From Minisyncoccia bacterium (GTDB taxonomy: Bacteria; Patescibacteriota; Minisyncoccia; Phycocordibacterales; UBA9973): a stretch of DNA of 64,000 nt. The position numbers were made by a program, and so were the translations under genes. Under the pieces are notes generated by a model, which worked only from the letters and a program-made list of their open reading frames with translations, ran no database searches and was not told the DNA's origin. Location: the NCBI GenBank assembly GCA_038249055.1, contig JBBRWS010000006.1, positions 927 through 64,926 on the forward strand, read 5' to 3'. Of this stretch, positions 2,968 to 64,000 are shown one piece after another; the stretch's first letter is position 1; the number at the start of each line of letters is the position of its first letter.

Positions 2968-3172
2968 TGGCCGAACTGAGAGGTCCAACCACGTGTGGCC
3001 CCAGTGATTGTACCTCTAATGAGGAAACCCAAGGTCTTTTTAAAAAATATGATACGATTATTTTTATTTATAATCCATAACAGGGGTACAACCTTGATTG
3101 AGTACAATCACCTACTGGGCCGAAGCCACAGCCCGTGAGGTCAATTTGGTAATTGAAGCTTGGACCTCTATA
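2968..3172. repeat. Composite GC-rich palindromic repeat (two sub-elements) of the GAGGTCCAACC/GGTACAACC family
   Basis: gaggtccaaccacgtgtggccccagtgattgtacctc (2979-3017) and ggggtacaaccttgattgagtacaatcacctactgggccgaagccacagcccgtgaggtc...cttggacctcta (3083-3170). The second part aligns over about 95 bp with the copy at 5400-5490. Confidence 0.8.
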
Positions 3173-3179
3173 AAAACTC

Positions 3180-5367: not shown

Positions 5368-5490
5368 GGGAGTATACCTCCACACTTATATTTTTATAGA
5401 CATCCAACCTTGATTTAGTAAAATCACCTCACGGGCTAGCTGGCTTCGCCCAGTAGGTCATTATGCTTAATAAGAGGTTGTACATCTATA
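5368..5490. repeat. GC-rich palindromic repeat element (same family as 3083-3170)
   Basis: catccaaccttgatttagtaaaatcacctcacgggctagctggcttcgcccagtaggtcatt...aagaggttgtacatcta. The flanks are collinear with the 3083-3170 copy. The central 26-28 bp hairpin is inverted relative to that copy. Confidence 0.8.
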
Positions 5491-5568
5491 AAAATGGTTT
5501 GGGGGTATAGCAAGAAAATATAAAACTTGTTATAATTATTCAGAGATATAAGGGTTTCGTAAATCATT

Positions 5569-14128: not shown

Positions 14129-14228
14129 AAATTTTTAGCGAAATTAAAATGTTCTTTTGTTAATGGTCTGGCTCCTCGTCCTCCCTCGTCCGAGGACCTT
14201 AATAAAAGAATGTTTTAATGTAGCCTTT

Positions 14229-26451: not shown

Positions 26452-26542
26452 ATAGAGGTCCAACCTCTACCTAAATTGAAAATAATTGAAATAAAACTGT
26501 TGATAAATAAAGGTATATTTTAGGTAGAGGTTGGACCTCTAT
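26452..26542. repeat. 24-bp perfect inverted repeats (hairpin-containing) of the GAGGTCCAACCTC family
   Basis: atagaggtccaacctctacctaaa at 26452-26475 and tttaggtagaggttggacctctat at 26519-26542. Each arm is itself a palindrome (tagagg-tccaa-cctcta). Located between divergent/convergent gene ends. Confidence 0.85.
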
Positions 26543-30247: not shown

Positions 30248-30460
30248 TTATAACAACAAACGAGGAGCGCATGCAAATAAATACCAATTTATTTGCATTG
30301 CGTCCGAGAGCAGTTGTTCTATAGTACTCTATATAACAACAAGAAAGGAGCATAAGCAAATTAATTAATATTTATTTGCTTAATGTCCGAATGCCGTTGT
30401 TATATCGTAATCGATATAACAACAAGAAAGGAGACAAGCAAATATTGAATTCTTAAATTT
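30248..30460. repeat. Tandem palindromic repeat array (about 2.5 units of about 82 bp) upstream of the T4CP-like gene
   Basis: Units begin with ataacaacaa(g/a)a(a/c)(g)gag at 30253, 30336 and 30416. Each has an internal hairpin gcaaataaat..atttatttgc. A perfect 12-bp inverted repeat gttgttatatcg-taa-cgatataacaac sits at a unit junction. Confidence 0.75.
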
Positions 30461-33058: not shown

Positions 33059-34426
33059 TTATTCTTCTGCAATTAATCTATGGGCCTCGTTTGCTGAAAT
33101 AGCATATTTTGCGCGTGAAGCTTCTATCACTTCTTTACGATAAGATTGATGGGTGGGAGGGAGAACTCTTAGTGTCTCTGCAGAAAATGGATCATAACTC
33201 TCTCCATCTATTGTCATTTTAATATAAAATTCTCCTACTCCAAGATTTATCATATCTTTAACATCAAAAACTGGAGCAAATTCTGGTTTAAGTTTTGTGG
33301 CATCATCACCTCCAACTCGGAATGAAACAATAGTACCTATATTGCCGAGTACGGCCTGTTGCACCTTTGGTAAAAGCTGACTAATATATTGATGAGCTAC
33401 TATTAGATTTATCCCATACTTACGAGCTTCAGATAAAATATTTTCAAATGTATCTGTAATAATATTATGGAATTCGTCTATATATAAATAAAAATCATGT
33501 CGATCCTGTGGTCCAAGTTTTGCTCTTTCCATCCCCGCTTGTTTTATTTTAGTCAAAAAAATAGCTCCAAAAAAAGAAGAATTTTCTTCACCAATTTTTC
33601 CCTTTGAAAGATTAATTAAAATAATTTTCTGATTATTCATTAATTGTTCCAAATCTATTTTATTTTCTTTTTGTCCAAAAATATTACGAAGCATTGGGTC
33701 TGATAAAAATTGTCCCAATTTATTTACAAGAGGAATAATAGTATCTGTATCAAATTTTTCAGACCAGTCAGCGAATTCAATGGCCCAGAATCTTTTTACC
33801 ATTTCATCTTGTATATACTCAGTGACTTTTTGACGATAATTACGATCAGTAAGCATTAAAATCATCCCTCTCATATTAGCTTCCGGATAATCGAGTAAAG
33901 CTAAAATCGTAAAACGAAAAACATGCTCGAGACGTGGAGACCAATTTGCACCAAATTGCTTACGTAACACTTCTATCAAACCTTGAGTTAGTTGGTGTTT
34001 AAAAGTTGGATCAATATTTGCAAGAGGGTTAAAAGATGCTGGAAATTCTACGTCACCTGGATCAATAATACAAACATCATCTATTCTATCTTTTGGAATA
34101 AAATTTAAAATATCTTCTATTAGTTCACCGTGTGGATCAATTACACAAATACCTTGACCATATGCAATATCTTGGCGAATCATTAATTCTTGAATTTTTG
34201 ATTTACCAACACCAGACTTACCAATAATATACATATGTCTCCTACGATCTATACGCTTTATGCCAAAGACGAATTTTTTTTCTTCCAATGCTGCCACATA
34301 ATTGGTACGTCCAATAAACACAACTTCACTTGGGTCTGACTTTCCTAAAGTTGCCAAATCTGGAGGTGGTGGAGCATATTTAATTATTTGAATTTTATTT
34401 GGTTTACTGAAAGACATTGTATTCAA
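33059..34426 (-). CDS. TraD/TraG/VirD4-like (T4CP-like) P-loop ATPase, paralogue 2
   Basis: Walker A GKSGVGKS, DPHGE, Walker B FYLYIDEF. 455 aa. Collinear with the N-terminal two-thirds of 28037..30235. Confidence 0.6.
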   Translation of the reverse strand: MNTMSFSKPNKIQIIKYAPPPPDLATLGKSDPSEVVFIGRTNYVAALEEKKFVFGIKRIDRRRHMYIIGKSGVGKSKIQELMIRQDIAYGQGICVIDPHGELIEDILNFIPKDRIDDVCIIDPGDVEFPASFNPLANIDPTFKHQLTQGLIEVLRKQFGANWSPRLEHVFRFTILALLDYPEANMRGMILMLTDRNYRQKVTEYIQDEMVKRFWAIEFADWSEKFDTDTIIPLVNKLGQFLSDPMLRNIFGQKENKIDLEQLMNNQKIILINLSKGKIGEENSSFFGAIFLTKIKQAGMERAKLGPQDRHDFYLYIDEFHNIITDTFENILSEARKYGINLIVAHQYISQLLPKVQQAVLGNIGTIVSFRVGGDDATKLKPEFAPVFDVKDMINLGVGEFYIKMTIDGESYDPFSAETLRVLPPTHQSYRKEVIEASRAKYAISANEAHRLIAEE

Positions 34427-34571: not shown

Positions 34572-36083
34572 ATGAACGGAAAAATAAAACAAGGGCTAAC
34601 CAAAAATTCTATATCTAATGACTCATCTTTGATTAAGAATTCTAAAATAATTGATACTGAATTCAAAGATAATAATACTCGAAATAATGAAGATGAATTA
34701 TTAAAAAAAGAAGAAATATTACTGGAAGAAGGTGAAGAATTATTAGAAAAAGAAGAAACACTATTAGAGGAAAGTAAAAATATTATAAAAAAAGAAGAAA
34801 CGTTATTAGAGGAAAGTGAAAAATTATTAAAAGAAGGAAAAGATTATATAAAAAAACTTGGTCCAGGGATAATTACCGGAGCTGCCGATGACGACCCATC
34901 TGGAATTGCTACTTACTCACAAACAGGTGCTCAATATGGAACTGGATTATTATGGCTTGCAGCTTGGACATTCCCATTAATGGCAATGATCCAAGAAATG
35001 TGTGCTCGTATATCATTAGTTACAGGACGAGGTCTTGCTGCTAATATTAAACATGCTTATTCAAAAAAAGTTTTATATCTCTGTACAGCATTACTTTTTA
35101 TAGCTAATACCTTAAATATCGGTGCAGATCTTGGAGCAATGGCTAAAGCAGTTCAATTAATATCTCCATCTATGTCTTTCGCGTTCTTAGTTATTTTTAT
35201 AGGAATTGCTGGTTTACTCATGGAAATATTTATTCCATATAAGAAATACGCTAAATATCTAAAATGGTTAGTAATAACATTGTTCTCGTATGTAATAACT
35301 GGATTACTTATTAATATGGATTGGTCTATGTTATTAAAAGATGGAATTATTCCTCATATTACATTTTCTAAAACACAGATTCTTCTCATCACAGGTATAC
35401 TAGGAACAACAATTTCTCCTTATCTTTTCTTTTGGCAAACATCTCAAGAAGTTGAAGAACAAATAGCTGAAGGTAAAACAACCGCTCATTCACGAAGAGG
35501 AACTAATGCTGCTGAAATAAAATCAATGAGAATAGATATATGGTCAGGAATGTTTCTTTCAAATATGGTAATGTTTTTTATTATCGCAGTATGTGCAAAT
35601 ACCCTTTTTGTAAATGGAATTACAGATATAGCAACCGCAAGCGATGCAGCAGCTGCACTTAAACCATTTGCAGGACCATTTGCATCAATACTCTTTACTA
35701 TTGGAATAATTGGAACTGGATTATTGGCTATTCCAGTTTTAGCTGGTTCCACTTCTTATGCAATATCCGAAAGTTTAGGATGGAAAGAAGGTTTATATCG
35801 TAAATTAAATGAGGCTCGAGCTTTTTATGGAGTAATAATTGTATCTATTTTTATCGGTATAATTATAAACTTTCTAGGAATAAACCCAATCAAAGCTCTT
35901 ATATATTCTGCCATTGCAAATGGTATAGTAGCCCCTGTTATAATTGTATGTATAGTTCATATTAGTTCAAGCCATAAAATTATGGGGCATTTTAAAAATT
36001 CTAAATTTGTAAATATAGTTGGATGGGCGTTATCTGCTCTTATGGGGATTACTGCAGTCGCCGCAATATATTCCCTCTTTTAG
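34572..36083 (+). CDS. NRAMP-family divalent metal transporter with N-terminal low-complexity E/K/L repeat
   Basis: The core is GPGIITGAADDDPSGIATYSQTGAQYG (NRAMP TM1 signature) with 11 TMs. The N-terminal roughly 90 aa carry repeated EETLLEES(K/E) motifs. Confidence 0.7.
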   Translation: MNGKIKQGLTKNSISNDSSLIKNSKIIDTEFKDNNTRNNEDELLKKEEILLEEGEELLEKEETLLEESKNIIKKEETLLEESEKLLKEGKDYIKKLGPGIITGAADDDPSGIATYSQTGAQYGTGLLWLAAWTFPLMAMIQEMCARISLVTGRGLAANIKHAYSKKVLYLCTALLFIANTLNIGADLGAMAKAVQLISPSMSFAFLVIFIGIAGLLMEIFIPYKKYAKYLKWLVITLFSYVITGLLINMDWSMLLKDGIIPHITFSKTQILLITGILGTTISPYLFFWQTSQEVEEQIAEGKTTAHSRRGTNAAEIKSMRIDIWSGMFLSNMVMFFIIAVCANTLFVNGITDIATASDAAAALKPFAGPFASILFTIGIIGTGLLAIPVLAGSTSYAISESLGWKEGLYRKLNEARAFYGVIIVSIFIGIIINFLGINPIKALIYSAIANGIVAPVIIVCIVHISSSHKIMGHFKNSKFVNIVGWALSALMGITAVAAIYSLF

Positions 36084-36382: not shown

Positions 36383-36520
36383 TTAGGTGGACCTTAGCGA
36401 GCAAACTACTTTGCTCGCGTGCGGCGATTAGTAAATCGAACCGTGAGGAACTCGGAAAGCTTTTCGTTATAAATTTTAATTTAATAATTTAAATTTATCG
36501 AAAAGGTGTACTGAAGCAGT
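36383..36520 (+). other. Conserved tRNA-downstream non-coding module, copy 2
   Basis: ggaccttAGCGAGCAAACTACTTTGCTCGCGTG...TCGAA...GGAAAGCTTTTCGTT...CGAAAAGGTGTACTG. The motif order is the same as at 15811-15942. Confidence 0.6.
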
Positions 36521-36732
36521 AGGCTTCGAGAAATGTAATCATGGTCCGCCTATCGTGATACACAATATTTAGATGCAAAGCATACTATATAAAAAGTTTT
36601 AGTCGCGGGTGAGAAGCGCGAATAAGTACATTCGCCTACTGGGTACTCGCGGTCCGCTACTTGTAGGCTTCGAGAAATGTACTCATGGTCCGCCTTTCGT
36701 GATACACAATATTTAGATGCAAAGCATATCAC
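36521..36732. repeat. Two 65-bp direct repeats
   Basis: aggcttcgagaaatgta(a/c)tcatggtccgcct(a/t)tcgtgatacacaatatttagatgcaaagcata occurs at 36521-36585 and 36666-36730. The track ORF 36550..36732 is a translation artefact of this repeat. A partial copy of the tRNA-Ala T-arm (gcggtccgcta) lies at 36651-36661. Confidence 0.85.
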
Positions 36733-36791
36733 ACAATAAAAACAGCCATCTTAAAAAGACAGCTGTTAATTTAAACTTAGGATAAAAAAAA

Positions 36792-38809: not shown

Positions 38810-38862
38810 TAAAAAATAGAGGTTGTACGTCTATGGAAGACGTCCAACCTCTATTTTTTTAT
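38810..38862. terminator. Bidirectional terminator formed by a GAGGTTG(G/T)AC-family palindromic element
   Basis: aaaaaatagaggttgtacgtcta-tggaa-gacgtccaacctctattttttt, between convergent genes. Confidence 0.8.
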
Positions 38863-38872: not shown

Positions 38873-39850
38873 TTATTCCCATTCAAATTTTCTTCCAAAA
38901 TGTCCCCACGTGCAAGTATCAGAAAATTTAACAACATCCAATTTCAAGTGATTATGTATCCCCTTTGGAGTTAAATCGTAATCAGTTATTTCTACTTCTT
39001 TTCCATCTATTACAGCCACAGCCATTACTGGCTCACTCTTACCTATTGCATAAGCAAGCTTTGTATATACTTCTTTCGCATTATGCTTCTTTAGTAAGTC
39101 CACAGCTATTTTACGAGCCATATAAGCACCAGAGCGATCTACTTTTGTATAATCCTTACCAGAGAAAGAACCTCCTCCAATTGTAATCTCTGGTCCATAG
39201 TTATCTACTATCAATTTTCTTCCAGAAAGTCCTGTGTCTGCATCAAATCCACCTTGATTCCATTCTCCCGCAGGATTTATAAGATATTCTTCTGATTCAA
39301 TAATATTTTTTACAAGTTCTAAAAGTTTATCGTTTTTAGTATTTTGAAAACTAGCTACGACTGTAGTAACGACACCATTATCTACTGTCACTTGAGTCTT
39401 TCCATCATAAGGATATACTTCAAATATTTTCTGACATAAATTTCGGGCAAGATTATATTCGAGAGGTAAATATGTATCAGTCTCACTTGTAGCATAACCT
39501 TTCATTATTCCTTGGTCTCCCGCTCCACCCGTATCAACTCCTTGTGCTATTTCTGGACTTTGTAAAACTATATTCGACAAAATTTTAAAATCTTTACCTA
39601 CTATTTTTTTTATAATAGCTTCTATGTCTGGATTTGATTTTGAAGTAACTTCTCCATTGATGGCTACCAGATTATGCCCACCCATTACTTCTATAGCACA
39701 ACGACTATTCTTATCTCCTTCTAAATATGCATCTAAAATACTATCCGCAATAAAATCACATATTTTATCTGGGTGCATTGGACTCACAAACTCTGCAGTT
39801 TTTTTACTCATGCTTGATTTATAAGGAAGAATGACTATATAAATCGGCAT
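38873..39850 (-). CDS. metK: S-adenosylmethionine synthetase (short form)
   Basis: Near the N-terminus: FVSPMHPDKICDFIADSILDAYL (the GHPDK motif). Also GGGAFSGKD. The likely start is the internal ATG (MSKKTAEF..., about 39811). Total length is about 312-325 aa. Confidence 0.8.
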   Translation of the reverse strand: MPIYIVILPYKSSMSKKTAEFVSPMHPDKICDFIADSILDAYLEGDKNSRCAIEVMGGHNLVAINGEVTSKSNPDIEAIIKKIVGKDFKILSNIVLQSPEIAQGVDTGGAGDQGIMKGYATSETDTYLPLEYNLARNLCQKIFEVYPYDGKTQVTVDNGVVTTVVASFQNTKNDKLLELVKNIIESEEYLINPAGEWNQGGFDADTGLSGRKLIVDNYGPEITIGGGSFSGKDYTKVDRSGAYMARKIAVDLLKKHNAKEVYTKLAYAIGKSEPVMAVAVIDGKEVEITDYDLTPKGIHNHLKLDVVKFSDTCTWGHFGRKFEWE

Positions 39851-40165
39851 CCTGTTAAATAAGATTTAACAGGGTTGATTAAAATATAATACGCTTCGCT
39901 CCTTTATTTTAATTAAAAAATTCCTCATAATGAGGAAAGATATAGATGACTAGTCTTATCTTTCCATAATAATACACTTGCATTATTTGGCTGGATTTAG
40001 CACCTTGCTTTCGCGGGTTGCTGATGGGTCATTGAGCCAGTTGCTCTCGCCATACTCTTGATAACTAACTATTTAGTTGTAATTTTATTATAGCATAATT
40101 TTATAAACAAAAATATTTCCATAAAAAAAATAACGAGGATATATCCTCGTTATTTTTTTATAATA

Positions 40166-40426: not shown

Positions 40427-41503
40427 TTATAATATTTTATAGAATACCTTAATTATTAAATATAAAATATAATCAAACCATTTCATCTTATAAGTTTTTG
40501 TATCAAAAATCACAACATCTTTTGCCCATTTTTTTATAATTTCTGAAATTTTATGAATGGCAATAGGTTCATTAAAAAAAATACCAACTTCTGAGTTTAA
40601 TTCAAATGATAAATAGTCCAGATTATTAGAACCTACAATTGCCTCCTTGCTATCTATTACCATTATTTTTGCATGATTCATTTGAGGTTCTAGATAAAAA
40701 TTTATACCAAGTTTTGATAACTTATGCATATAAAAATGATTTACTCTATCAATAAAATAACTATCTGTATTTCTAGGCACCAAAATATCAACAGATACTC
40801 CTCTTAAGCTTGCCTGATGCAACGCTCCTATTAGCCAACGTTTTGGCATTAAATATGGAGTTACTATAGTGATACTTACTTTTGCATGAGACAAATGTTT
40901 TTTGTAAATCTTTTTTAAATTATATTTATTTTTAATTGGAGAATGCTCTACAAGCCAATCATGTAAAGTGTCTTTGAAAATTTTACTTTTATTATGAATA
41001 AGGATTAATGAGTCCTTTCCTCCACACTCAGCATAAACTTTAGCAAAAGATTTTACTATAAAAAAGACAAGCTGTCCCTTTACCTGAACCATCAAATCAT
41101 CCCAAAGAGATGCACTTTGGTGAAAATTTACTCCTCCAATAAATGCAATTTTTTCATCAACAATTAAAATTTTACGATGAGTTCTATGTAAAAAATAACT
41201 TTGAAAAATTAATTCTACCCCTGCTTCTTTGAGTCCAAAAATAACTTTATTACTTAAGCTATAACTTCCAAAGAAATCCAAAATAACTTTAACCCGGATT
41301 CCATTTTTAGCTTTTTCTTTCATTAATTCCAAGAAATTAAAGTCCACCATGTCATCCTGAAAAATATACATTTCAAGGTATATTGATTTCTTAGCAGAAA
41401 ACATTATGTCATACATTGCCTGCCAAGATTTCTGTGAATTCGCAAAAAATTTATAAGGCATAAAGATATTATACACTAAATATTTATTATTAACGGGCAT
41501 CAA
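40427..41503 (-). CDS. Phospholipase D family protein (cardiolipin synthase-like), two HKD motifs
   Basis: HKD1 is HRKILIVDEKIAFIGGVN, HKD2 is HAKIMVIDSKEAIVGSNNLD. Confidence 0.75.
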   Translation of the reverse strand: MMPVNNKYLVYNIFMPYKFFANSQKSWQAMYDIMFSAKKSIYLEMYIFQDDMVDFNFLELMKEKAKNGIRVKVILDFFGSYSLSNKVIFGLKEAGVELIFQSYFLHRTHRKILIVDEKIAFIGGVNFHQSASLWDDLMVQVKGQLVFFIVKSFAKVYAECGGKDSLILIHNKSKIFKDTLHDWLVEHSPIKNKYNLKKIYKKHLSHAKVSITIVTPYLMPKRWLIGALHQASLRGVSVDILVPRNTDSYFIDRVNHFYMHKLSKLGINFYLEPQMNHAKIMVIDSKEAIVGSNNLDYLSFELNSEVGIFFNEPIAIHKISEIIKKWAKDVVIFDTKTYKMKWFDYILYLIIKVFYKIL

Positions 41504-42361: not shown

Positions 42362-43153
42362 TTAATATCTCCTAAAACTTCCTTGCGTGCGCAATACTGG
42401 CTTATAATATGAACTAAATGATTGTCTATTATTATTTTGAATTGAATTTGCTATATTTTTATTCGCATATATATTAGCAACATGTTCATCGACTGTTATA
42501 TTTATTGTCTGACAAGCATATGATAATTTCCCTATTGCAAACTGAACTTCATTTTCATTTAATTTTTCTTGATTGTATTTTTTAATGCATTCAATCAACT
42601 TATTGAGATAAACCACGTTTTCAATTGGTTCTGTTTTTATTTCAGCTTCCCCTGTGAATACAACAATATTATAAAAATTATCTTTAGCAAAAGGCATCAA
42701 ATCTTTCAGCGCCATCAAGTGCCCATAATTTTGATGAATAGGATTTTGAAATTTATATTTAATTGCCCCTGGCATTGATTGTGTCCATGTTGATTGATTT
42801 TTACTACCAAAAATCCACCCTTTTAAATCTTTACTTTCTAAAACAAAAATTCCAAATTTAGAAACAATTATATGATCAATTTGAGTTGACCCATTATTTT
42901 TAGAATTTATAATAATATTATTAAATATAAAATAATCAGTATAACTTAATTCAGCAGCAAGCAGATCTGCAACTTTTTGTTCTCCAGAATTTAAACCTTC
43001 CATATAGCATTTACATGCATGTTTATTTTTATTATTATATCTAATTTTTTGTAATTCGTATGGGAAACTTCTATCTTTAAACAGCCATTTAAAAAACTTT
43101 ATAATCAAATATATAATTATTACATCTAATATCAAATAAAATAATATATCCAT
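42362..43153 (-). CDS. NERD (nuclease-related domain) protein with N-terminal TM
   Basis: N-terminal hydrophobic helix. The NERD core is QIDHIIVSKFGIFVLESKDLKGWIFGSKNQSTW. Confidence 0.55.
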   Translation of the reverse strand: MDILFYLILDVIIIYLIIKFFKWLFKDRSFPYELQKIRYNNKNKHACKCYMEGLNSGEQKVADLLAAELSYTDYFIFNNIIINSKNNGSTQIDHIIVSKFGIFVLESKDLKGWIFGSKNQSTWTQSMPGAIKYKFQNPIHQNYGHLMALKDLMPFAKDNFYNIVVFTGEAEIKTEPIENVVYLNKLIECIKKYNQEKLNENEVQFAIGKLSYACQTINITVDEHVANIYANKNIANSIQNNNRQSFSSYYKPVLRTQGSFRRY

Positions 43154-44008: not shown

Positions 44009-44776
44009 CTACTTCAATTTATATTTACCTGCATCAATAAAATCAAGGTAATTTTTATCTCTTAAAAATTGTAATTGCTGACGAATTTTATCTTTAATGT
44101 GTTTATTTTCTGGATGAATGTTTTTTAATTCAGACTCAAACTTGTATATATCCGCTAATGTAAACTCTTTTTTATTTAAAGAATCAATACAATTCATAAT
44201 GTCTAAAATCCAACCCTTTGCATCTACTTTTTTAATTTTCTTTAAAAAAACTGTTTTTTGCCATTTTTCTAAAACCTCTTTTTTAGAAATCTCTTTACCA
44301 TTTTCAACATAAAAAACCTGTCCTGCTTTTGGTATTTTTGAAAAAATTATATTTGAACCAACCCAACCAGCTCTTCGAGCAGTTTTTTTTAATGGCTTCC
44401 TCTTTTCAATAATTTCTGGAATAAAAAAATGCTTAGGGATGATAAAAAAATCATTTACAAACAATGTTTCTAAATATCCCATAAAAAAGAAATTGGGTTT
44501 ATTTTTAGAACTTATTCTTTCAATCATTTTAGAATAAGCCCCAGCAGGTATAGTTTTTCTAATTTTTCCTTTTTTAGATTTCAATTCAAAATCTTCAATA
44601 CATTTTTTACAATAAAAATCAGCAACTGGCTTATTATTTTCGTATTCTTCAATATTAGTATTTCCACAATTTGGACAATATATTTGTTTTAAAACCCAAT
44701 TTTCACTTATAACTCTTATTTTTTGGGTTTCACTTAAATATCCAATCCCTAGTTTTTTATCTAAAGTTAAATTCAT
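44009..44776 (-). CDS. DpnI-like (Dam-replacing family) methyl-directed restriction endonuclease
   Basis: N-terminal YCPNCGN...PVADFYCKKCIEDFELKSKKGK and NPNFFF, RKPLKKTARRAGW, IRQQLQFLRDK. These strongly resemble DpnI-family proteins as I remember them (recalled, not searched). Confidence 0.6.
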   Translation of the reverse strand: MNLTLDKKLGIGYLSETQKIRVISENWVLKQIYCPNCGNTNIEEYENNKPVADFYCKKCIEDFELKSKKGKIRKTIPAGAYSKMIERISSKNKPNFFFMGYLETLFVNDFFIIPKHFFIPEIIEKRKPLKKTARRAGWVGSNIIFSKIPKAGQVFYVENGKEISKKEVLEKWQKTVFLKKIKKVDAKGWILDIMNCIDSLNKKEFTLADIYKFESELKNIHPENKHIKDKIRQQLQFLRDKNYLDFIDAGKYKLK

Positions 44777-52113: not shown

Positions 52114-52128
52114 AATTAAATAATTAAA

Positions 52129-52174
52129 ATAGAGGTTGGACGTCTACGATAGACGTCCAACCTCTATTTTTTTA
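52129..52174. terminator. Bidirectional terminator formed by a GAGGTTGGAC-family palindromic element
   Basis: atagaggttggacgtcta-cga-tagacgtccaacctctattttttt, between convergent genes. Confidence 0.8.
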
Positions 52175-53922: not shown

Positions 53923-54927
53923 TTATTTTCTTTCTCTTGCGAGCTTTATTATATGCTCTATAAATTCTGGCATGGTAGAACCAACCGCACTAAGTGCTTT
54001 AGGCATTAGAGATTCACTGGTGAGACCAGGCAAAGTATTTACTTCAAGAGCATAGATACCTCTATTTGGATGAATAATAAAATCACTTCTAGAATAATGA
54101 CTAAGGTCAAGACCGGAATGTATCAGTGCGGCTAAACGTTCAAGTTCTTTTTTTTCTTCTTCTGTAAAATTTCCAGGGCAAATTTCTTGAGATTGTCCAT
54201 TGTATTTTATATCATTATCAAAAAAAGTACTCGTCTTTGGAATACGTATTTCAATAGGAGGAAGAGTATAAACTTTTTTATTTCTAAAATTATCTATCAC
54301 TCCCACTGTTGCCTCTTTTCCATTTATAAATTCTTCAACTAGTACACTCACCTTTTCATTCACACCAACTTTAAAGGCATCAACCAAAGATTGAAAAGTT
54401 TTACAAACGAAAACACCCATAGATGAACCTCCCGTTAGAGGCTTTACAATCCAAGGCGGAGAAAACCTTCCCCAAACTTCCCGAGCCTTTTGTGTAGCAT
54501 ATTTATCTCGAGGTCCATCAAAATCTTCCTGATATGCAGAGAAAAGAATATGTCTAGGAGTTTTAATTCCAAGCTTTTCAAATTCTTGTTTAGCTAACAA
54601 TTTATTATATCCAAGAGCGGAAGCAAAAGGACCTGAACCCGTATAAGGTATTCCCCACTGTTCAAGTTCTTGTTGAACCTTTCCATCTTCACCATAATCT
54701 CCATGAAGTGCATTTACAATAACATCAACTTTGTTAACAATTTTATCTAAATTTGTTGGAATACCATTGATATGCCAAACACCGCCTCGGTCAATAAAAA
54801 TATCAACGGGAGTATATCTATTATTCATTTTATCACCTCTTAAATGAGAAAGGACTTGAGCTCCGCTAGCTAATGAAACATCATGCTCCCCACTTATTCC
54901 TCCACGAATAACTCCAACTTTAATCAT
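53923..54927 (-). CDS. ddl: D-alanine--D-alanine ligase
   Basis: The start is placed at MIKVGVIRGGISGEHDVSLASG, the canonical Ddl N-terminus. The track's longer ORF (to 55041) runs through the palindromic element and was rejected. ATP-grasp motifs are present downstream. Confidence 0.85.
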   Translation of the reverse strand: MIKVGVIRGGISGEHDVSLASGAQVLSHLRGDKMNNRYTPVDIFIDRGGVWHINGIPTNLDKIVNKVDVIVNALHGDYGEDGKVQQELEQWGIPYTGSGPFASALGYNKLLAKQEFEKLGIKTPRHILFSAYQEDFDGPRDKYATQKAREVWGRFSPPWIVKPLTGGSSMGVFVCKTFQSLVDAFKVGVNEKVSVLVEEFINGKEATVGVIDNFRNKKVYTLPPIEIRIPKTSTFFDNDIKYNGQSQEICPGNFTEEEKKELERLAALIHSGLDLSHYSRSDFIIHPNRGIYALEVNTLPGLTSESLMPKALSAVGSTMPEFIEHIIKLARERK

Positions 54928-55027
54928 GAGTTTATTATAACAAATAAAATTGTAATATGTAAAAAAAATTAAGTTTTCAAATATCAAACATCTGAAAAAA
55001 ATAAAAATGAGGCTTAAAATAGTATCT

Positions 55028-55120
55028 TGGTAGAGGTCCAACCTCTACCAAAAAAATACCCATATAAATAAGGATATAATAAATTAAAAAACTCAAAAAG
55101 GTAGAGGTCCAACCTCTACC
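55028..55120. repeat. Two identical 21-bp palindromes ggtagaggtccaacctctacc about 71 bp apart
   Basis: At 55029-55049 and 55100-55120, between the ddl start and the uvrC stop. Same sequence family as 26452-26542. Confidence 0.85.
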
Positions 55121-55124
55121 TAAA

Positions 55125-56507
55125 TTAGGTGAGGAAATTTTTATTTCTCTTTAGTTTATGAAAGGCAATAGCAAACCTATGAGATTCAGTATTTATTAAA
55201 AGAATTTCTTTTTTATATTTCTTAATAATTAACTCATCCCCCATTATTGCTTTCGCTTTGTGTTTATCGTCTTTAACAACCGACACAACTGGAATTTTAA
55301 ATTGATATCGATTTAAAACTGATTTAGCTATATTAATTTGAGCTACCCCTCCATCCATAACTATTAAATTTGGAAGTCCCCACTCTGTATGACGCAAGCG
55401 GCGCGATAAAACTTCTTCGAGTGCACCAGTATCATTTGATTTAGTTTGAGTTCTAATTATAAACTTTTTATATTCACTTTTATTTAATTCACCATTTTCA
55501 ATTACGGTCATAACTCCAACCATATTAGAACCAGATAAATGTGCTATATCGTAAGCTTCAATTCTGAAGAGAGCCTTAGAGGTACAACATCCGGAGCCAG
55601 CTTGATGTTGGACCTCTCGGCGAGGAGATCCCTGCCCGACTACGTCATTCGGGCGGGCGAAGACCTTTTGAAAAGGATTTTCATGCATAATATCATCTTT
55701 AATTAAAGCAACATCATTTATATGCTCAAGTGCAAAAATTCTTTTCTTTATTTCATCAGCCTTTTCAAATTCTTTCTTTTTTGCAAAAGACATCATCTCT
55801 TTTTTAAAATTTGAAATAATTATCTTCTTTTTTCCTTCAAAAAATAATTTGAGATTTCTTATATTTTTCTTATATCCAAGCAACATATCAGAAAAATCTT
55901 TTTCGAAATAGCCCGCCCGAGCTTCAGGGGTACAACCTCCGAAGCCATTTGAGGTTGGACCTCTACGGCTCGGGCATTCAATTAAAGGAACAAGACCTAG
56001 CTGTCTATAAAATTCTTTGTTATTTTTTTTACTTGATTGTTCATCAATAAAAGGGAAAATTCTTCTTACAATTTTCATTGCATCTCTCAATTGCATTCCG
56101 TTTGGAAAGGGACCATAAACCACATCATAATTTTCTTTATTCAAATTTCTACCTCGAAGAACCAAAACCTTTGGCAATAAATCTTTAGTAATACAAACAT
56201 AGTTAAAACTTTTATTATCTTTTTCTTTAGTATTATATTTAGGTAAATATTTCTTAATTAAATTTGCTTCTAATATCAGTGCCTCCAAGACACTGTCTGT
56301 TTCTTTCCATTTAATAGAAGTTGCTTGAGTTACCATATCGAGCAATAATGGTCCCCGAGTTGCTATTAGATCATTCCCAAAATAACTCTTTACTCTATCA
56401 GAGAGATTTGTCGCTTTACCTATATAAAGTATATCTTTCCCTTTATAAAAGAAATATACACCTGGTTTTTTGGGTAATTTTATTTTTTTAAATTGTTGAC
56501 TATTCAC
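55125..56507 (-). CDS. uvrC: Excinuclease ABC subunit C (short form lacking the C-terminal HhH region), carrying two in-frame palindromic-element insertions
   Basis: GIY-YIG N-terminus (LPKKPGVYFFYKGKDILYIGKATNLSDRVKSYF). UVR domain (FEKADEIKKRIFALEH). RIEAYDIAHLSGSNMVGVMTV...EYKKFII (the RIEcfDiSH block). C-terminal endonuclease domain LIVMDGGVAQ. 460 aa. Confidence 0.85.
   Translation of the reverse strand: MNSQQFKKIKLPKKPGVYFFYKGKDILYIGKATNLSDRVKSYFGNDLIATRGPLLLDMVTQATSIKWKETDSVLEALILEANLIKKYLPKYNTKEKDNKSFNYVCITKDLLPKVLVLRGRNLNKENYDVVYGPFPNGMQLRDAMKIVRRIFPFIDEQSSKKNNKEFYRQLGLVPLIECPSRRGPTSNGFGGCTPEARAGYFEKDFSDMLLGYKKNIRNLKLFFEGKKKIIISNFKKEMMSFAKKKEFEKADEIKKRIFALEHINDVALIKDDIMHENPFQKVFARPNDVVGQGSPRREVQHQAGSGCCTSKALFRIEAYDIAHLSGSNMVGVMTVIENGELNKSEYKKFIIRTQTKSNDTGALEEVLSRRLRHTEWGLPNLIVMDGGVAQINIAKSVLNRYQFKIPVVSVVKDDKHKAKAIMGDELIIKKYKKEILLINTESHRFAIAFHKLKRNKNFLT
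55576..55665. mobile_element. GC-rich nested palindromic element inserted in frame in uvrC (copy 1)
   Basis: ttagaggtacaacatccggagccagcttgatgttggacctctcggcgaggagatccctgcccgactacgtcattcgggcgggcgaag. It encodes the odd G/P/R/Q/C-rich peptide VVGQGSPRREVQHQAGSGCCTSKALF between the UVR domain and the RIEAYD block. Confidence 0.75.
55911..55978. mobile_element. GC-rich nested palindromic element inserted in frame in uvrC (copy 2)
   Basis: gcccgcccgagc-ttcag-gggtacaacctccgaagccatttgaggttggacctc-tacg-gctcgggc. It encodes ECPSRRGPTSNGFGGCTPEARAG. Confidence 0.75.
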
Positions 56508-56937: not shown

Positions 56938-59529
56938 TTATTTTTTTCTTAAAACTTTTTTCAAATATTTTCCTGTGTGACTTGCCGGAGTATTTGCAAC
57001 TTCCTCAGGGGTTCCGCGTGCTACAATATTTCCTCCTCCATTTCCTCCTTCTGGGCCTATATCTATTATATAATCACAATTTTTTATTATATCCATATTG
57101 TGTTCAATCAAAACAACACTATTCCCTTTGTTTACAAGTTTATTCAAAACATCTAAAAGTTTTGAAACATCATCATAATGAAGTCCAACAGTTGGCTCAT
57201 CTAGTAGATAGATAGTCTTCTCCAGATGAGGACGATAAAGCTCTGAAGAAATTTTTACACGCTGTGCTTCCCCACCAGAAAGAGTTGTTGCTGATTGACC
57301 AAGCTTAACATAACCAAGTCCAACGTCCATTAAAGTTCTTACTCTATCATAAACATTTGGAATATCCTCAAAAAAAATCAAACTCTCTTCTACTGTCATT
57401 TGTAAAATATCATGAATATTTTTCTTCTTATATTTTATAGTTAGTGTCTCTTTATCAAATCTTTTCCCGTTACAAACATCACAAGTAACATAAACAGTTG
57501 GTAAGAAATGCATTTCGACTGCTATTTCACCATTACCCTCACATGCTTCACAACGACCTCCTTTTACATTAAAAGAAAATCTATTTGATTTCCAACCACG
57601 AAGTCGCGCCTCATCTGTACTTGCAAAAATATCTCTAATAAAAGTAAATGAACCTGTATAGGTAGAAATATTAGAACGAGGAGTTCTACCTATTGGAGAT
57701 TGGTCTATAAGAATAGCACGAGATAAATATTCAGTTCCAGTAAAAGAAGCGCAATTAAATATTGTTGCCGTTCTAAATTTTCTTTCATAACGAGCTTGAA
57801 GATTCTTGTGTAAAATTTCGTACATAAGAGAACTTTTACCAGAGCCAGAAACCCCAGTAATAACTACCATCTTCCCGAGAGGCACTTCTACATTCATATT
57901 TTTAATATTAAAAACTTTTCCTCCAACTATTTTGAGCGAACCTTTTTCACTTGTTCTTCTTTTTTCTGGAATTTCTATTCTTAATTCATTTCGTAAATAT
58001 GCCAAGGTTCTAGATTTAGATGGATTAGTAGGAGCATCTAATAATTTTTCTAAATAATCTGAAACAATAACTTCTCCACCATGAACCCCTGCTTTGGGTC
58101 CAATATCTATAATATAATCAGATGCATAAATAGTATCCTCGTCATGCTCAACTATTATAATAGTATTTCCAATATCACGAAGATCCTCTAATGTTTTAAT
58201 TAGACGGTCATTATCACGCTGATGAAGTCCGATAGTAGGTTCATCTAAAACATAAAGTGCACCAACCAATCTAGAACCGAGCTGACTTGCAAGTCTTATT
58301 CTTTGAGCTTCTCCCCCCGAGAGAGTATTGGCTTTTCTATCTAGGGATAAATAATTTAATCCTACATTCAATAAAAATTGAAGTCTTGCTTCTATCTCTT
58401 TCACTATTACTTTTGAAATTTCTTTTTCCGTTTCATTTAGAGTAAGTTCAATAAAAAAATCTGATACTTGGTTAATAGATAGATGAGTAAGATCCACAAT
58501 ATTTAAGCGTGTTTTAGTCTGACCCAAAAAAACATTTAAGGCTTCTGGTCTAAGTCGAGCACCCTTACAATCATCACATACTTCAGTACCACCAAAATAC
58601 TTGGTTCCTAATCCATTACAGGTAGGACATGCTCCATATGGGGAATTAAAAGAAAAAAGTCTTGGCTCTACTTCCGGAAAGGAAAAACCATCTCTTGGAC
58701 ATGAAAATTTGGAAGACATTAAAAATTCTTCATCAGCTATTTTTATAATAACAAGACCATCTGATTCAAGAAGTGCCCTTTCCACAGACTCGGCAAGTCT
58801 CATACGAGAATCACTTGGATTATCTTTAAATTCATGAATTTGAAAAGAATCAACGATTACTTCTATGTCATGTTTTTTAGTTTTTGAAATATCGATTCTC
58901 TCTCTTAATTTCTTAATTTCACCATCCATTCTCACCTCAGTAAATCCTTTATTTAATAAATCATAAAGTAATTGATAATATTCACCTTTTCTTCCACGCA
59001 CAACAGGAGATAAAATAGATACTGGAGTTTCATCCCATTCAACTCCTAAAACTTTTTTCTGATTGGAGCTTTTTTTAAATATTTTTATTTTATCAAGTGC
59101 AAAATTAAGAATTTCTTCATTTGAAAGTTTTTTAATTTCATCACCACATTCTGGACAATGAGGCTTCCCTACACGAGCATATAATACTCGAAGATAATCA
59201 TATATCTCTGTGATAGTAGCAACTGTAGAACGAGGGTTATTGGAACGTGATTTTTGATCAATAGAAATAGCTGGTGAAAGCCCTGAAATCTCATCAACAT
59301 CAGGCTTTGGCATTTGATTTAGGAACTGACGAGCATAAGCAGAAAGAGATTCAACATAACGACGCTGACCTTCAGCGAAGATAGTATCAAAAGCAAGAGA
59401 AGATTTACCGGAGCCAGACATACCAGTAATAACCACCATTTTGTTGCGTGGCATCTCCACACTAATATTTTTTAAATTATGAGTGCGCGCTCCCTTTATT
59501 ATTATTTTTCCTTCTTCATTTTTCTTCAT
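56938..59529 (-). CDS. uvrA: Excinuclease ABC subunit A
   Basis: Two ABC ATPase modules ([23 protein letters not shown]), LSGGEAQR signatures twice, zinc-finger Cys clusters. 863 aa. Confidence 0.95.
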
Positions 59530-59678: not shown

Positions 59679-59755
59679 CGTGATATAGCTCAGTTGGTAG
59701 AGCACTAAGCCTAAAAAACTCAGAGGTCGGGAGTTCAAGTCTCTCTATCACGACG
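59679..59755 (+). tRNA. tRNA-like gene with canonical acceptor, D and T arms but a 9-nt anticodon loop (CCUAAAAAA) and an A-C mismatch in the anticodon stem
   Basis: cgtgata-ta-gctc-agttggta-gagc-a-ctaag-cctaaaaaa-ctcag-aggtc-gggag-ttcaagt-ctctc-tatcacg-a. The architecture parallels tRNA-Lys/Thr. Terminator at 59797-59829. Confidence 0.5.
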
Positions 59756-60691: not shown

Positions 60692-62902
60692 TTATTTTTT
60701 ATCTTTTGGTAGAAGTTTATTATTTAATGCTATAATTTCATCTCTTAGTATAGCTGCCGTTTCGAAATCCAATTCCTTTACTGCTTTATTCATTTCTTTC
60801 TCTTTAAGATTAATTATTTTTTCGTATATAATTTTATTTCTATCTTGATCTGAAAGTAATAAATTTTTAATTGATTCTCTCTCCCCCTTTCCTTTATTGC
60901 TCTTATTTTTTAGAAATGCTTTTTTAAATAATTCCACATCCAAATCAAGTTCTACTCCTACAGCTTTTTCGTGTTTATTTTCTAATTCTTCTGTTATATC
61001 TTTTATCTTTTTTATAATTGTTTTGGGGGTAATATTATGTTTTTTATTGTAAGCTATTTGTATATTGCGACGACGAGTTGTTTCCTTAATAGCATTTTCA
61101 AGTGCATCGGTCATAATATCTGCATATAAAATAACACGACCTTCTACATTACGAGCTGCACGTCCTATAGTTTGTATTAAAGACGTCTCAGAACGCAAGA
61201 ATCCCGCCTTGTCAGCATCTAAAATACCTATTAGGGCTAACTCGGGTAAATCTAATCCTTCACGTAGCAAGTTTACTCCTACGAGTATATCCATATCCCC
61301 CTTTCTAAATGCAGTCAAAATCTGAATTCTTTCAATTGTTTTAATTTCGCTGTGCAAATATTCAGCTTTCATTCCCTTTTCTTTTAAATAAATAGACAAA
61401 TCTTCAGCCATTTTTTTTGTTAAAGTTGTAGCAATAACTCTAAATCCTTTCTTTATTGTTTTTTCAGCTTCTATAATAAAGTCTTGAATTTGACCAGGGT
61501 AATCTTTCAGAGGTCCAACTTCCTCCGACGTACAACCTCTGGGGCCACATGAGGTTGGACGTCTTAAGACCTCTGAAATATTTGAGGACCTCGCAATAAG
61601 CTTCTCATTTGTGGAAGCGGAGACTGGTTTTACAATTATCTCTGGATCAATCAAACCAGTAGGTCTAATTATTTGTTCTACTATTTGGTCGCTTGCTGAC
61701 TTTTCCTTTTCACTGGGAGTTGCCGAAACGTATATTACCTGTCCCGTGCGTTCTTCAAATTCATTAATCTTTAGTGGACGATTATCTCGAGCTGATGGAA
61801 GTCTAAAACCAAACTCTATCAGAGTATTTTTTCGAGATGCATCTCCCGCATACATTCCACCTATTTGTGGAAGTGTAACGTGTGATTCGTCTATAATTGT
61901 TAAAAATTCATTTCTAAAATATGAGAGCAATGTTTCAGGAGCTTCTCCTTCTTTCTTACCAGACATCTGCCTGGAATAATTTTCTATTCCATTACAATAA
62001 CCAATTTCTTTAATCATAGCCAAATCGTAACTTGTTCTTCTTTTTATTCTTTCTGCTTCAAGTGGTTTTCCTTCCTTTTCAAATTTTTTAAGTTGAGAAT
62101 CGAGTTCAAGTTTAATATTTTTTATTGCAATCTTTAATTGATCTTTGTTTGTAATAAAGTGCTTTGCAGGAAAAAGAAAAATATTTTTTTCCTCTTTTAT
62201 TATATGAGATGAAATTGGATCTACTTTTGCAATCCTTGAAATAACTCCTCTCTCAAATTCTATTTGATAAACAAAAGTTTCAGATATTGGCATAATCTCA
62301 ACTTTCTGTCCTATTGACCTAAAATTCCCTGGATTAATATCTGCATTAGTTCGTTCAAAATGAATTATAACTAATTTCTTCATTAGTTCGATACGTTCCA
62401 TTTTCATTCCAACTTCTAGCTTTAAATTAACTTTCTCATAATCCTCAGGGCTACCCAATCCATAAATACAAGATACGGAAGCCACAATAATAACATCTGG
62501 ACGAGTAAGGAGCGATTGTGTAGTTGCATGTCTAAGGCGGTCAATTTCTTTGTTTATTTGAGCATCTTTTTCAATATAAGTATCTGAAGCAGGCATATAT
62601 GCCTCTGGTTGATAGTAGTCATAATAGGATACAAAATAATGAACTGCTGCATCAGGAAAAAACTCTCGGAACTCTTGAGCGAGCTGTGCAGCAAGCGTTT
62701 TATTGTGGGCTATTACTAGAGTCGGTTTATTCCATTCTGCAATTACGTTTGCAACTGTAAAGGTTTTACCAGTACCGGTTGCCCCAAGAAGTGTTTGTTT
62801 TTGCATTCCTTCCTTTAATCCTTTTAACAACTCCGAAATTGCTTTTGGTTGATCACCATCTGGTTTATAGTCACTTTTTAATTTAAAAACTTTATCTTTC
62901 AT
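60692..62902 (-). CDS. uvrB: Excinuclease ABC subunit B carrying an in-frame palindromic-element insertion
   Basis: Helicase motif I GATGTGKT. DEAD-like DESH (IIDESHVT). Motif VI QTIGRAARN. C-terminal UVR domain FETAAILRDEIIAL. 736 aa. Confidence 0.95.
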   Translation of the reverse strand: MKDKVFKLKSDYKPDGDQPKAISELLKGLKEGMQKQTLLGATGTGKTFTVANVIAEWNKPTLVIAHNKTLAAQLAQEFREFFPDAAVHYFVSYYDYYQPEAYMPASDTYIEKDAQINKEIDRLRHATTQSLLTRPDVIIVASVSCIYGLGSPEDYEKVNLKLEVGMKMERIELMKKLVIIHFERTNADINPGNFRSIGQKVEIMPISETFVYQIEFERGVISRIAKVDPISSHIIKEEKNIFLFPAKHFITNKDQLKIAIKNIKLELDSQLKKFEKEGKPLEAERIKRRTSYDLAMIKEIGYCNGIENYSRQMSGKKEGEAPETLLSYFRNEFLTIIDESHVTLPQIGGMYAGDASRKNTLIEFGFRLPSARDNRPLKINEFEERTGQVIYVSATPSEKEKSASDQIVEQIIRPTGLIDPEIIVKPVSASTNEKLIARSSNISEVLRRPTSCGPRGCTSEEVGPLKDYPGQIQDFIIEAEKTIKKGFRVIATTLTKKMAEDLSIYLKEKGMKAEYLHSEIKTIERIQILTAFRKGDMDILVGVNLLREGLDLPELALIGILDADKAGFLRSETSLIQTIGRAARNVEGRVILYADIMTDALENAIKETTRRRNIQIAYNKKHNITPKTIIKKIKDITEELENKHEKAVGVELDLDVELFKKAFLKNKSNKGKGERESIKNLLLSDQDRNKIIYEKIINLKEKEMNKAVKELDFETAAILRDEIIALNNKLLPKDKK
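61510..61594. mobile_element. GC-rich palindromic element inserted in frame in uvrB
   Basis: agaggtccaacttcctccgacgtacaacctctggggccacatgaggttggacgtcttaagacctctgaaatatttgaggacctcgc. It encodes ...RRPTSCGPRGCTSEEVGPLKDYPGQ... Confidence 0.75.
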
Positions 62903-63138: not shown

Positions 63139-64000
63139 TCAAGAAAGATAATTTTTTAAAAATTCTTCTTTAAAATCAAAAAAATTATCCTCAAGTATGG
63201 ATTTACGCATATCTGAAACAAGCTTATTTATAAAATAAATATTATGTATTGAAGCGAGTGTAGCCCCCAACATTTCTTTTGCTCGAAAAAGATGAGACAT
63301 ATAACTTCTTGTATAATTTATACATGTATAACATTCACAACCGGAATCAATTATATTAAAATCTTTAACAAATTTTGCATTAAGAATATTTATTTTTCCA
63401 TTCTTAGTAAATAAAGTTCCATTGCGAGCAATACGGGTAGGACCAACGCAATCAAAAAGGTCTACTCCATTTTCTACTCCCATAAACAAGTCTTCTGGTT
63501 CCCCTATGCCAAGCAAATGACGTGGTTTTTCTTCTGGAAGAATTTCATTCACCCATTTTACTGCTGTAGACATGTCTTCTTTTGCAAAAGAACCACCAAT
63601 TCCAAAACCATCAAAATCCATACTACCAATAACTTCTGCTGATTTTTTACGAAGTATTTCTGAACGTCCCCCTTGAACAATGCCAAAGAGAGCTTGAGGA
63701 AAAGAAGGGGTCCGAAATCCTAGAGGTACAACCTCCGAAGCCAGTTGAGGTTGGACCTCCAGAATTGCGGGTGTAGTATCTTTTATTAATTCCCTCTTTT
63801 TATGTTCTATTAAACTTCTCTTTGCCCAAGCATGTGTACGAGAAAGTGCTTCTTCTTGATAGCGATTATTTTCTGTTGGAGACGTACATTCATCAAAAGC
63901 AAAAATAATATCGGCTCCGAGATTATGTTGAATTTCTATTGATTTTTCTGGAGTAATATAATGAAGTGAACCATCTATGTGTGAGCGAAAAGAAACACCA
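63139..64000 (-). CDS. tgt: Queuine tRNA-ribosyltransferase (N-terminus beyond window end) carrying an in-frame palindromic-element insertion
   Basis: Manual reverse translation is open to position 64000. It reads ...FRSHIDGSLHYITPEKSIEIQHNLGADIIFAFDECTSPTENNRYQEEALSRTHAWAKRSLIEHKK[RELIKDTTPAILEVQPQLASEVVPLGFRTPSFPQ]ALFGIVQGG...MDFDGFGIGG...CECYTC..H zinc site. The track shows only the 3' ATG-initiated part (63139..63621). Confidence 0.9.
   Translation of the reverse strand, partial: GVSFRSHIDGSLHYITPEKSIEIQHNLGADIIFAFDECTSPTENNRYQEEALSRTHAWAKRSLIEHKKRELIKDTTPAILEVQPQLASEVVPLGFRTPSFPQALFGIVQGGRSEILRKKSAEVIGSMDFDGFGIGGSFAKEDMSTAVKWVNEILPEEKPRHLLGIGEPEDLFMGVENGVDLFDCVGPTRIARNGTLFTKNGKINILNAKFVKDFNIIDSGCECYTCINYTRSYMSHLFRAKEMLGATLASIHNIYFINKLVSDMRKSILEDNFFDFKEEFLKNYLS
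63706..63772. mobile_element. GC-rich palindromic element inserted in frame in tgt
   Basis: aggggtccgaaatcctagaggtacaacctccgaagccagttgaggttggacctccagaattgcgggtg. The core is identical in arrangement to the uvrC copies. Confidence 0.75.

Follow-up and report, generated by a model that had tools for sequence, protein, structure and literature searches.

Evidence that a dispersed hairpin repeat has been inserted in frame in the uvrB gene of a Minisyncoccia bacterium

A 64,000-nucleotide (nt) stretch of DNA from a Minisyncoccia bacterium (assembly GCA_038249055.1, contig JBBRWS010000006.1, positions 927 to 64,926), hereafter called the window, contains an in-frame segment in its uvrB gene that is very probably a copy of a dispersed, GC-rich, selfish hairpin repeat. 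The repeat, here named family A, belongs to a narrow Paceibacteria/Nomurabacteria clade and resembles the Rickettsia palindromic elements (RPEs). An original prediction, made from the sequence alone, had proposed that a member of a palindromic element family lies in frame in uvrB. This interpretation was supported, since the core of the element recurs in uvrC, in tgt and in intergenic DNA, and the uvrB site is empty in the nearest relatives. It was also refined in three ways: the insert is composite, it contains 27 nt more than the corresponding insert of the relative L001, and its site is a recurrent hot spot.

The uvrB coding sequence is located at 60692..62902 on the minus strand. Its reading frame is intact and encodes a protein of 736 amino acids (E = 1.7e-223 to a solved UvrB), and UvrBs of solved structure were matched by phmmer with E values of 1e-223 to 1e-192. 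The alignment to the solved chains was split in two, with residues 6-428 placed on chain residues 5-428 and residues 469-640 placed on chain residues 428-599. Both blocks were 60-70% identical to the solved UvrBs, and chain residue 428 touched both. Residues 429-468 (40 amino acids, 120 nt, about 61499-61618) were unmatched by phmmer in any solved UvrB. The helicase motifs around the segment had been described as intact, and UvrB on both sides of it indeed aligned gaplessly to the solved structures. Measured against orthologues with an empty site (L003 and L005), the whole in-frame insert spans 61508..61612 on the minus strand and comprises 105 nt, with ends placed to within about ±3 nt. The earlier limits of 61510-61594 fall inside this insert but were too short. 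The bases quoted at that time are translated in the uvrB frame as RRPTSCGPRGCTSEEVGP within UvrB, and the bases, the peptide and the protein length of 736 residues were all as reported. The reference length of 660-670 amino acids had to be replaced, as the baseline in this clade is 697-706 amino acids, and a longer C-terminal linker that does not belong to the element makes up part of the excess. The G+C content is 30% for the window and 47% for 61500-61599, and a G+C island was flagged at 61506-61575 (40-nt windows of at least 57.5%).

Four syntenic relatives were compared, with about 90% amino acid identity in UvrB and about 83-84% nucleotide identity in uvrB. The closest UvrB proteins carry the annotation Candidatus Paceibacterota, Pacebacteria or Nomurabacteria, all of the candidate phyla radiation (CPR). 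The uvrB gene is uninterrupted in L003 and L005, where GCTAG is followed directly by AAAGGATTAC (that is, ...GTTTCAGCTAG joined to AAAGGATTACCCGGG...), and in L001 the gene is 105 nt larger and contains a simple hairpin. Synteny was perfect on both sides of the locus in the relatives, and the filled uvrB allele was recovered independently from L001, from L002 and, as P0002, from 11 contigs of several samples and archives. Because the site is empty in L003 and L005, 36 of 119 close orthologues have no insert and no solved UvrB has the segment, the uvrB segment is best read as an insertion and not as ancestral sequence. Conservation of the segment in UvrBs of unrelated bacteria was not observed, as it is absent from all solved UvrBs and from the same 36 orthologues.

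Neighbouring genes had also been named as targets, and this was borne out for uvrC and tgt, with two and one inserts respectively, all in frame; uvrA has none in the window. The uvrC gene (55125..56507, minus strand) encodes 460 amino acids including its two inserts. In L001 the protein has 486 amino acids and three inserts, and in L003 and L005 it has 413 amino acids and no insert. The uvrA gene (56938..59529, minus strand) encodes 863 amino acids. It is likewise free of inserts in L003 and L005, and is interrupted in L001 (900 amino acids) by a repeat of a second family, named family B. The tgt gene, which starts at 63139 and continues beyond 64000, has one in-frame insert, and the same site contains family A in L001, family B in L003 and a single half-site in L005. 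Further inserts in the relatives lie at L001 16532-17992 (third uvrC site), L001 13320-16022 (uvrA) and L003 8613-9950 (tgt, a different family). Because the relatives have inserts at further sites, the set of occupied sites differs from genome to genome. Orthologues differed in total length by multiples of three.

Family A was recognized by a 13-nt half-site, GAGGTTGGACGTC, which occurs 18 times in the window with up to two mismatches, compared to 0.17 expected occurrences. Five loop-type copies are present in the window, and the 38-44-nt core recurs in uvrC, tgt and intergenic DNA. In uvrC the copies are located in frame at 55926..55964 (insert 1, peptide SRRGPTSNGFGGCTPEA, inside an outer stem GCCCGAGC...GCTCGGGC) and at 55578..55616 (insert 2, peptide PRREVQHQAGSGCCTSKA). 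Beside the latter, a separate GC-rich hairpin, GCCCGA-CTACGTCAT-TCGGGC, is found in frame at 55634-55654; together with the wrapped uvrC copy it may represent a third small palindromic family. The tgt copy lies in frame at 63722..63759 (peptide ILEVQPQLASEVVPLGF), and a copy in reverse orientation at 2979..3016, upstream of a pilB-like ATPase gene, is probably intergenic. Loop-less relatives of the half-site were observed as well. One of these (AGAGGTTGGACGTCTA/TAGACGTCCAACCTCT, 52126..52170) is placed between convergent genes with A and T runs alongside and is terminator-like on both strands, and its loop-less twin at 38815-38855 is also a terminator-like hairpin. A small palindrome, GGTAGAGGTTGGACCTCTACC, followed by a T-run, directly follows the uvrC stop codon (55099..55121, minus strand) and is terminator-like; similar sites are located at 55025-55053, 26453-26469 and 26525-26541. 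The intergenic loop-less relatives show the hairpin plus U-run that is typical of terminators.

Alignment of 31 copies gave the consensus TTAGAGGTACAACCTC-CGAAGCCAGCTA-GAGGTTGGACCTCTAA. GCCA in the loop was invariant, and an A stood opposite a G at one stem position in all copies but one. The invariant central columns of this alignment were set by the search pattern; the covarying columns were not. In the 15-pair stem 94.7% of the cells were paired and 7 pairs had changes on both sides (31 cells), a level of covariation approached by none of 500 shuffles and by none of the slid controls. A compensated change, CCTC/GAGG to CATC/GATG, was also seen between the uvrC copies of the window and L001. 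The pattern indicates that a nucleic-acid hairpin is maintained, with a 14-bp stem, one A·G mismatch and a loop of 11-12 nt containing GCCA. The variant ACATC/GATGT was found in 4 of 7 distinct copies of L001, and such variants, common to the copies of one genome, suggest homogenisation or genome-specific bursts.

The distribution of family A is narrow. A scan with an exact pattern of 185,579 species, one genome each, gave 41 matches, of which 16 had palindromic stems and AGAG...CTCT feet. All 16 true copies came from only five low-GC Paceibacteria genome bins. The other 25 were single, non-palindromic chance matches in unrelated high-GC genomes. A stricter pattern retrieved 54 metagenome loci, and a scan of IMG/VR gave no match and no viral contig carrying family A. 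In all DNA examined, 83 distinct family-A copies were found, 26 of them inside genes. According to Pfam the host genes are uvrB, uvrC, tgt, trmD (L031) and the NAD-dependent ligase gene ligA (L042, L053 and L081), and a further host is a class-V aminotransferase gene of the nifS/iscS-like type (L008). The intragenic copies were oriented opposite to the gene in 19 cases and in the same direction in 7, with copies that are not independent. An orientation bias seen in a first set (7 of 8) was therefore not claimed. None of the elements matched Rfam 15 at gathering scores. In the window, only tRNAs and an S-adenosylmethionine (SAM) riboswitch were found in this way; the latter (39953-40067, minus strand, 51.5 bits), upstream of metK (38873-39850), is ordinary and shows that the RNA scan works.

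In uvrB the family-A core hairpin extends over 61527..61563. It consists of a left arm GACGTACAACCTC (61527-61539), a loop TGGGGCCACAT (61540-61550) and a right arm (61551-61563) which is the half-site itself, and it contains the one conserved A·G mismatch. The two inner arms are 92% complementary. An outer stem is formed by TTTCAGAGGTC (61505..61515) and GACCTCTGAAA (61568..61578), which makes the uvrB hairpin a two-tier structure. Folding of this region was predicted to yield -43.4 kcal/mol for RNA (z = -3.5) and -25.8 kcal/mol for DNA (z = -4.6); no shuffled sequence out of 200 folded as well. Alignment to the orthologue in L001 showed that 17 nt (GTCGGAGGAAGTTGGAC, 61513..61529) and a perfect 10-nt palindrome (GTCTTAAGAC, 61561..61570) are present in the window and missing in L001. 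These 27 nt, or nine additional codons, flank the inner stem and convert the simple hairpin of L001 into the two-tier form.

A family-B remnant was recognized at 61579..61612 on the minus strand. This 5' part of the insert, TTCCACAAATGAGAAGCTT...GAGGTCCTC, is also found in L047, where this uvrB site holds a complete family-B insert that reads ...AGGTCCTCGGAYGAGG....GAGGRGCCAGACCATTCGAAAAA and encodes the peptide LFxRSSDEGGRGARPSxK. Because of this common 5' part, the uvrB insert is composite, with a family-B remnant followed by the family-A hairpin. Family B also occurs free, as a perfect copy (GGTCCTCGGACGAGGGAGGACGAGGAGCCAGACC) between two open reading frames at 14165-14198 on the minus strand. 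L001 has the family in frame in uvrA, uvrC and tgt, L003 in tgt and L047 in uvrB, and many UvrB and TrmD orthologues contain it as well (peptide SSDEGGRGARPS).

Family A has in addition a long form of about 90 nt, with the same termini and apical loop (CGAAGCCA...) and two side hairpins. It is present at 3083..3170 on the plus strand and, in inverted orientation, at 5397..5488 on the minus strand. The stems of the side hairpins differ between the copies and are nevertheless complementary (GATTC/GAATC, CAATC/GATTG, GAATG/CATTC and GATTT/AAATC), and a cloverleaf-like four-way fold is predicted for the long form. A permissive search of 2900-5600 against Rfam gave no match at E ≤ 1 for the long forms. 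The two copies enclose three genes, encoding an unknown protein of 257 amino acids, a pilin-like protein and a response regulator, and in the syntenic locus L072 several copies are found at the same intergenic positions. Composite and nested copies were also observed elsewhere: a short form lies inside a long form in L076, and the trmD copy of L104 is half short form and half long form. Together with the family-A hairpin within the family-B insert of uvrB, these copies suggest that a new insert is also drawn to one already in place.

An alternative explanation is that the hairpin is a selected cis-acting signal inside repair genes, which could act as an intragenic attenuator or pause, as a site for RNase, as a stabiliser of the mRNA or as the target of a regulator recognising the conserved loop, with the coding insert as its price. 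Conservation of the loop YGRRGCCA and the A·G mismatch across genome bins, the covarying stem and the presence of copies in three neighbouring repair-related genes fit such a role, as do the loop-less relatives at 52126-52170 and at 55099-55121 after uvrC, which sit exactly where terminators are expected. A signal under selection is, however, difficult to reconcile with presence and absence that vary among relatives of about 90% UvrB identity, or with unrelated repeat families at the same sites. Furthermore, tgt, trmD, ligA and the nifS-like gene are functionally unrelated hosts, and both orientations occur in genes. On the coding strand the uvrB copy is followed by GAAAGATTACCC, without a U-tract, and does not have the features of an intrinsic terminator. 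This explanation was considered improbable.

A second alternative concerns the fate of the insert during expression. If the segment were cut out of the mRNA, or if the ribosome skipped it as in the Magnusiomyces 'byp' elements and phage T4 gene 60, it would be missing from the mature protein. The strong, compact hairpin in AT-rich coding surroundings fits such a mechanism, and the bypassed mitochondrial elements are GC-rich mobile palindromes too. The reading frames speak against it. In 24 copies, open frames of at least 80 codons were present on either side on one strand. A single stop-free frame ran through 23 of these, and the last was located between two tandem genes. A skipped element would not need to keep a stop-free frame; with an unconstrained frame only about one third of the copies would be in frame. 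The differences in total length between orthologues are multiples of three as well. Removal or bypass is highly unlikely, because frame and stops would then be unconstrained, yet all 23 intragenic copies are in frame. The uvrB insert is almost certainly transcribed and translated with its gene, judging from the conserved frame. The peptide itself is not conserved. In tgt, a 1-nt indel in the loop distinguishes the window copy from its L001 orthologue, and the two are read as LEVQPQLASEVVPLG and LEVQPQAGFGGCTSK, respectively; the first arm of the orthologous uvrC copies is read in different frames in the two genomes. Because orthologous copies are read in different frames, the constraint is on the nucleic acid and on the total frame and not on the amino acids, and the peptide is a passenger.

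The site in UvrB is used repeatedly. The 36 orthologues without an insert have a linker of at most 9 residues. The other 83 of the 119 are longer by 10-52 residues at this site, and at least six distinguishable kinds of insert occur among them. Family B-like inserts were the most frequent (29), followed by an NRLSL...AHTYD type (11), family A (6), a PLLxKEG type (6) and two further types (4 each), with 24 inserts unclassified. A loop of TrmD is variable in the same manner, being either empty or filled by family A, family B or a NYELRIKNKKSK type, and the tgt site is likewise reused. In other lineages, too, the UvrB site is a recurrent hot spot with many unrelated inserts. Selection for permissive loops explains part of this reuse. 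In an AlphaFold model, residues 430-466 of UvrB formed a coil with a pLDDT (predicted local distance difference test) of about 30, between a strand (421-425) and a helix (471-484). The helix is the first after the inter-domain junction, which fits the clean break in the alignment to the solved structures. The insert is predicted to be a disordered loop in a permissive, surface-exposed region.

It could be argued that the extra loop is an adaptive, lineage-specific feature of UvrB, for example a Cys-x4-Cys motif or a partner-binding loop, and that the palindromic DNA is incidental. The fixed inter-domain position, the presence of something there in many orthologues and the CGPRGC in the window peptide could be taken in favour of this. 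The inserts at the site are, however, mutually unrelated, and a third of the orthologues have none. The low pLDDT, the use of different frames for the same DNA in orthologous genes and the presence of the identical core in intergenic DNA also contradict an adaptive loop, and we regard it as very improbable. A repeat-induced chimera of assembly or binning could be suspected for a repeated element in a metagenome-derived assembly, but with the frame kept, the filled allele recovered independently (L001, L002 and P0002 on 11 contigs) and the flanking synteny perfect, this can practically be dismissed.

A selfish hairpin repeat is left as the best explanation. Family A landed in uvrB at the junction of the two helicase (RecA-like) domains, within or beside an older family-B insert. 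The insert survives there since its total length is a multiple of three, it is free of stops and the loop is a permissive one on the surface. It adds about 35-40 residues to UvrB, predicted to be disordered and with a sequence not itself under selection. The copies may be spread and homogenised by a process at the DNA level that acts on an extruded hairpin or a single-stranded form; template switching, gene conversion between copies and a trans-acting nuclease recognising the loop are candidates. Preferred targets could be existing hairpins and A/T-rich palindromic sequences, which would account both for nested copies and for protein loops being used more than once. The stems often run past the consensus into copy-specific sequence, by a mean of 5.4 bp compared to 0.4 bp in controls, and the left flank of the uvrB copy, AATC, is complementary to the host codons GATT of the conserved KDY. 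The trmD copy is bordered on both sides by the host sequence AAATT. These observations fit copying from a folded-back single strand, by template switching or gene conversion, and also the use of short palindromic A/T sequences as insertion targets. A further idea was that host flanks had been duplicated in inverted form. The empty and filled trmD sites showed that the extension is in large part family consensus (TTTTAGAGG/CCTCTAAAA); a short palindromic duplication of the target may add to it, and only a weak version of the inverted-duplication idea was kept.

Several points weigh against the selfish repeat. No transposase, RAYT (REP-associated tyrosine transposase), HUH nuclease or integrase was found by Pfam among about 58 window open reading frames or among the genes listed for the related loci, and because of this lack of a transposase the copying mechanism is one that we only infer. 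The dense cluster of elements in L072 flanks pilus and response-regulator genes syntenic with 1177-5500 of the window, and not a transposase. No clear target-site duplication was seen: the AAATT found on both sides in the trmD host is itself palindromic, and the uvrB site is composite. Part of the stem extension belongs to the family consensus (TTTTAGAGG...CCTCTAAAA), and the conserved loop and mismatch could reflect a host function instead. Translation of the insert is deduced from frame conservation alone, and the AlphaFold model is of moderate quality, with a shallow alignment of 51 sequences and a mean pLDDT of 69.

A wider idea can be put forward, although we find it rather doubtful. Family A with its cloverleaf long form of about 90 nt, family B and the further types could together be one undescribed hairpin-repeat system of the CPR, in which an enzyme would recognise the apical loop YGRRGCCA and the A·G mismatch, and copies would insert into hairpins or convert them. 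Permissive loops of the essential proteins UvrB, UvrC, Tgt, TrmD and LigA would then be reusable landing pads, remodelled time after time. If true, such a system would be a general driver of variation in protein length among Patescibacteria and would represent a new mobilisation mechanism.

Other features of the window were noted. A tRNA-Phe gene with anticodon AAA was predicted at 59679-59754 on the plus strand (ARAGORN; 56 bits in Rfam), with two mismatches in the anticodon stem. It is present at the same place in L001 and absent from L003 and L005, and may be an accessory or degenerate tRNA-like gene. GC-rich segments directly downstream of tRNA-Trp (15812-15888) and tRNA-Ala (36385-36455) have a common motif, AGCRAGCAAACTRCTTTGCTYGCGTG, and no Rfam match at gathering scores. 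Among the intergenic repeats are a 77-nt direct repeat (36519-36595 and 36663-36739), whose copies are 91% identical and spaced by 144 nt, and an 83-nt tandem repeat (30249-30414, 73% identical) with an internal palindrome in each unit. A 21-nt periodic repeat of at least five units (34681-34841) lies in the 5' part of a gene for an Nramp-family transporter (34572-36083) and encodes a Glu/Leu/Lys-rich, heptad-like stretch. The ddl open reading frame (53923-55041, minus strand) has its mechanical start, TTG, inside a palindrome at 55031-55051. By alignment to relatives, its real start is an ATG near 54935 (335 amino acids), with a near-consensus promoter at 54963-54934. Two genes for VirD4/TraG-like type IV coupling proteins (28037-30235 and 33059-34426, minus strand) and DpnI-like (44009-44776), NERD (42362-43153) and phospholipase D (PLD)-nuclease-like (40427-41503) genes may be remnants of mobile or defence modules.

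In textbooks, in-frame selfish DNA in essential genes is a curiosity, described mainly from Rickettsia. The same phenomenon is now seen in an unrelated phylum with reduced genomes, the CPR/Patescibacteria, where it is apparently rampant, and where one and the same set of surface loops, in UvrB, UvrC, Tgt, TrmD and LigA, is occupied by several repeat families. Differences in length and 'insertions' in CPR proteins should not be taken for functional domains, and alignments, gene calls and phylogenomic analyses of these lineages can be led astray by such repeats. To our knowledge, the question of what moves the RPEs is still open after 25 years. The conserved loop, the mismatch and the nesting of family A are a handle for finding a mobiliser.

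Full-text searches of the literature gave no description of such elements in the CPR, Patescibacteria or Parcubacteria. An attC-like reading was rejected; the arm GTTGGAC fits GTTRRRY, but there is only one pair of boxes and the element is far too short. Repetitive extragenic palindromic (REP) elements and bacterial interspersed mosaic elements (BIMEs), which are mobilised by RAYT and tagged by GTAG/CGTC (PMC3733652), are similar to family A in being imperfect palindromes of 20-40 nt with many copies and terminator-like intergenic members. In both, a conserved asymmetry suggests that the hairpin form is recognised. By definition REPs lie outside genes, whereas 26 of the 83 family-A copies are intragenic. 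The foot of family A is TTAGAGGTAC, without a GTAG head, and the one GACGT variant is located within the stem. Neither the window nor the Pfam lists of related loci showed a RAYT gene, and the conserved loop sequence of family A is untypical of REPs. [quoted passage not shown] In contrast to these, family A has no parent insertion sequence in the window or the related loci and no clear target-site duplication. It is one whole hairpin and not a body between terminal inverted repeats, so that inverted repeats are present only in a trivial sense. The GC clusters of AT-rich mitochondria (yeast var1, Magnusiomyces 'byp') are also GC-rich hairpins, with insertions in coding sequence and polymorphism among close relatives. 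They are organellar, and the ribosome bypasses the frame-breaking byp elements, whereas family A always keeps the frame. The very small dispersed repeats of cyanobacteria and the coding palindromic repeats of Methanocaldococcus jannaschii are short, nested and intragenic like family A, but differ in sequence and host.

The closest resemblance is to the RPEs, which PMC10969869 summarises as repeated palindromes lying in frame in unrelated metabolic genes and compatible with the protein fold (Ogata et al. 2000, 2002). Both are dispersed palindromes found in intergenic DNA and in frame in unrelated housekeeping genes, with the host open reading frame kept. The insert is predicted at the protein surface, the genomes are small and AT-rich, and no transposase is known. 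On the grounds of phylum, core length and peptide, family A is an analogue of the RPEs and not a member of an RPE family. Its hosts are Patescibacteria/CPR, compared to Alphaproteobacteria for the RPEs, and its core is 38-44 nt (about 90 nt in the long form), compared to about 100-150 bp. RPE families encode conserved peptides, whereas the family-A peptide is not conserved and its frame varies between orthologues. The conserved apical loop with its mismatch, and the reuse of the same sites by several families, are features of family A.

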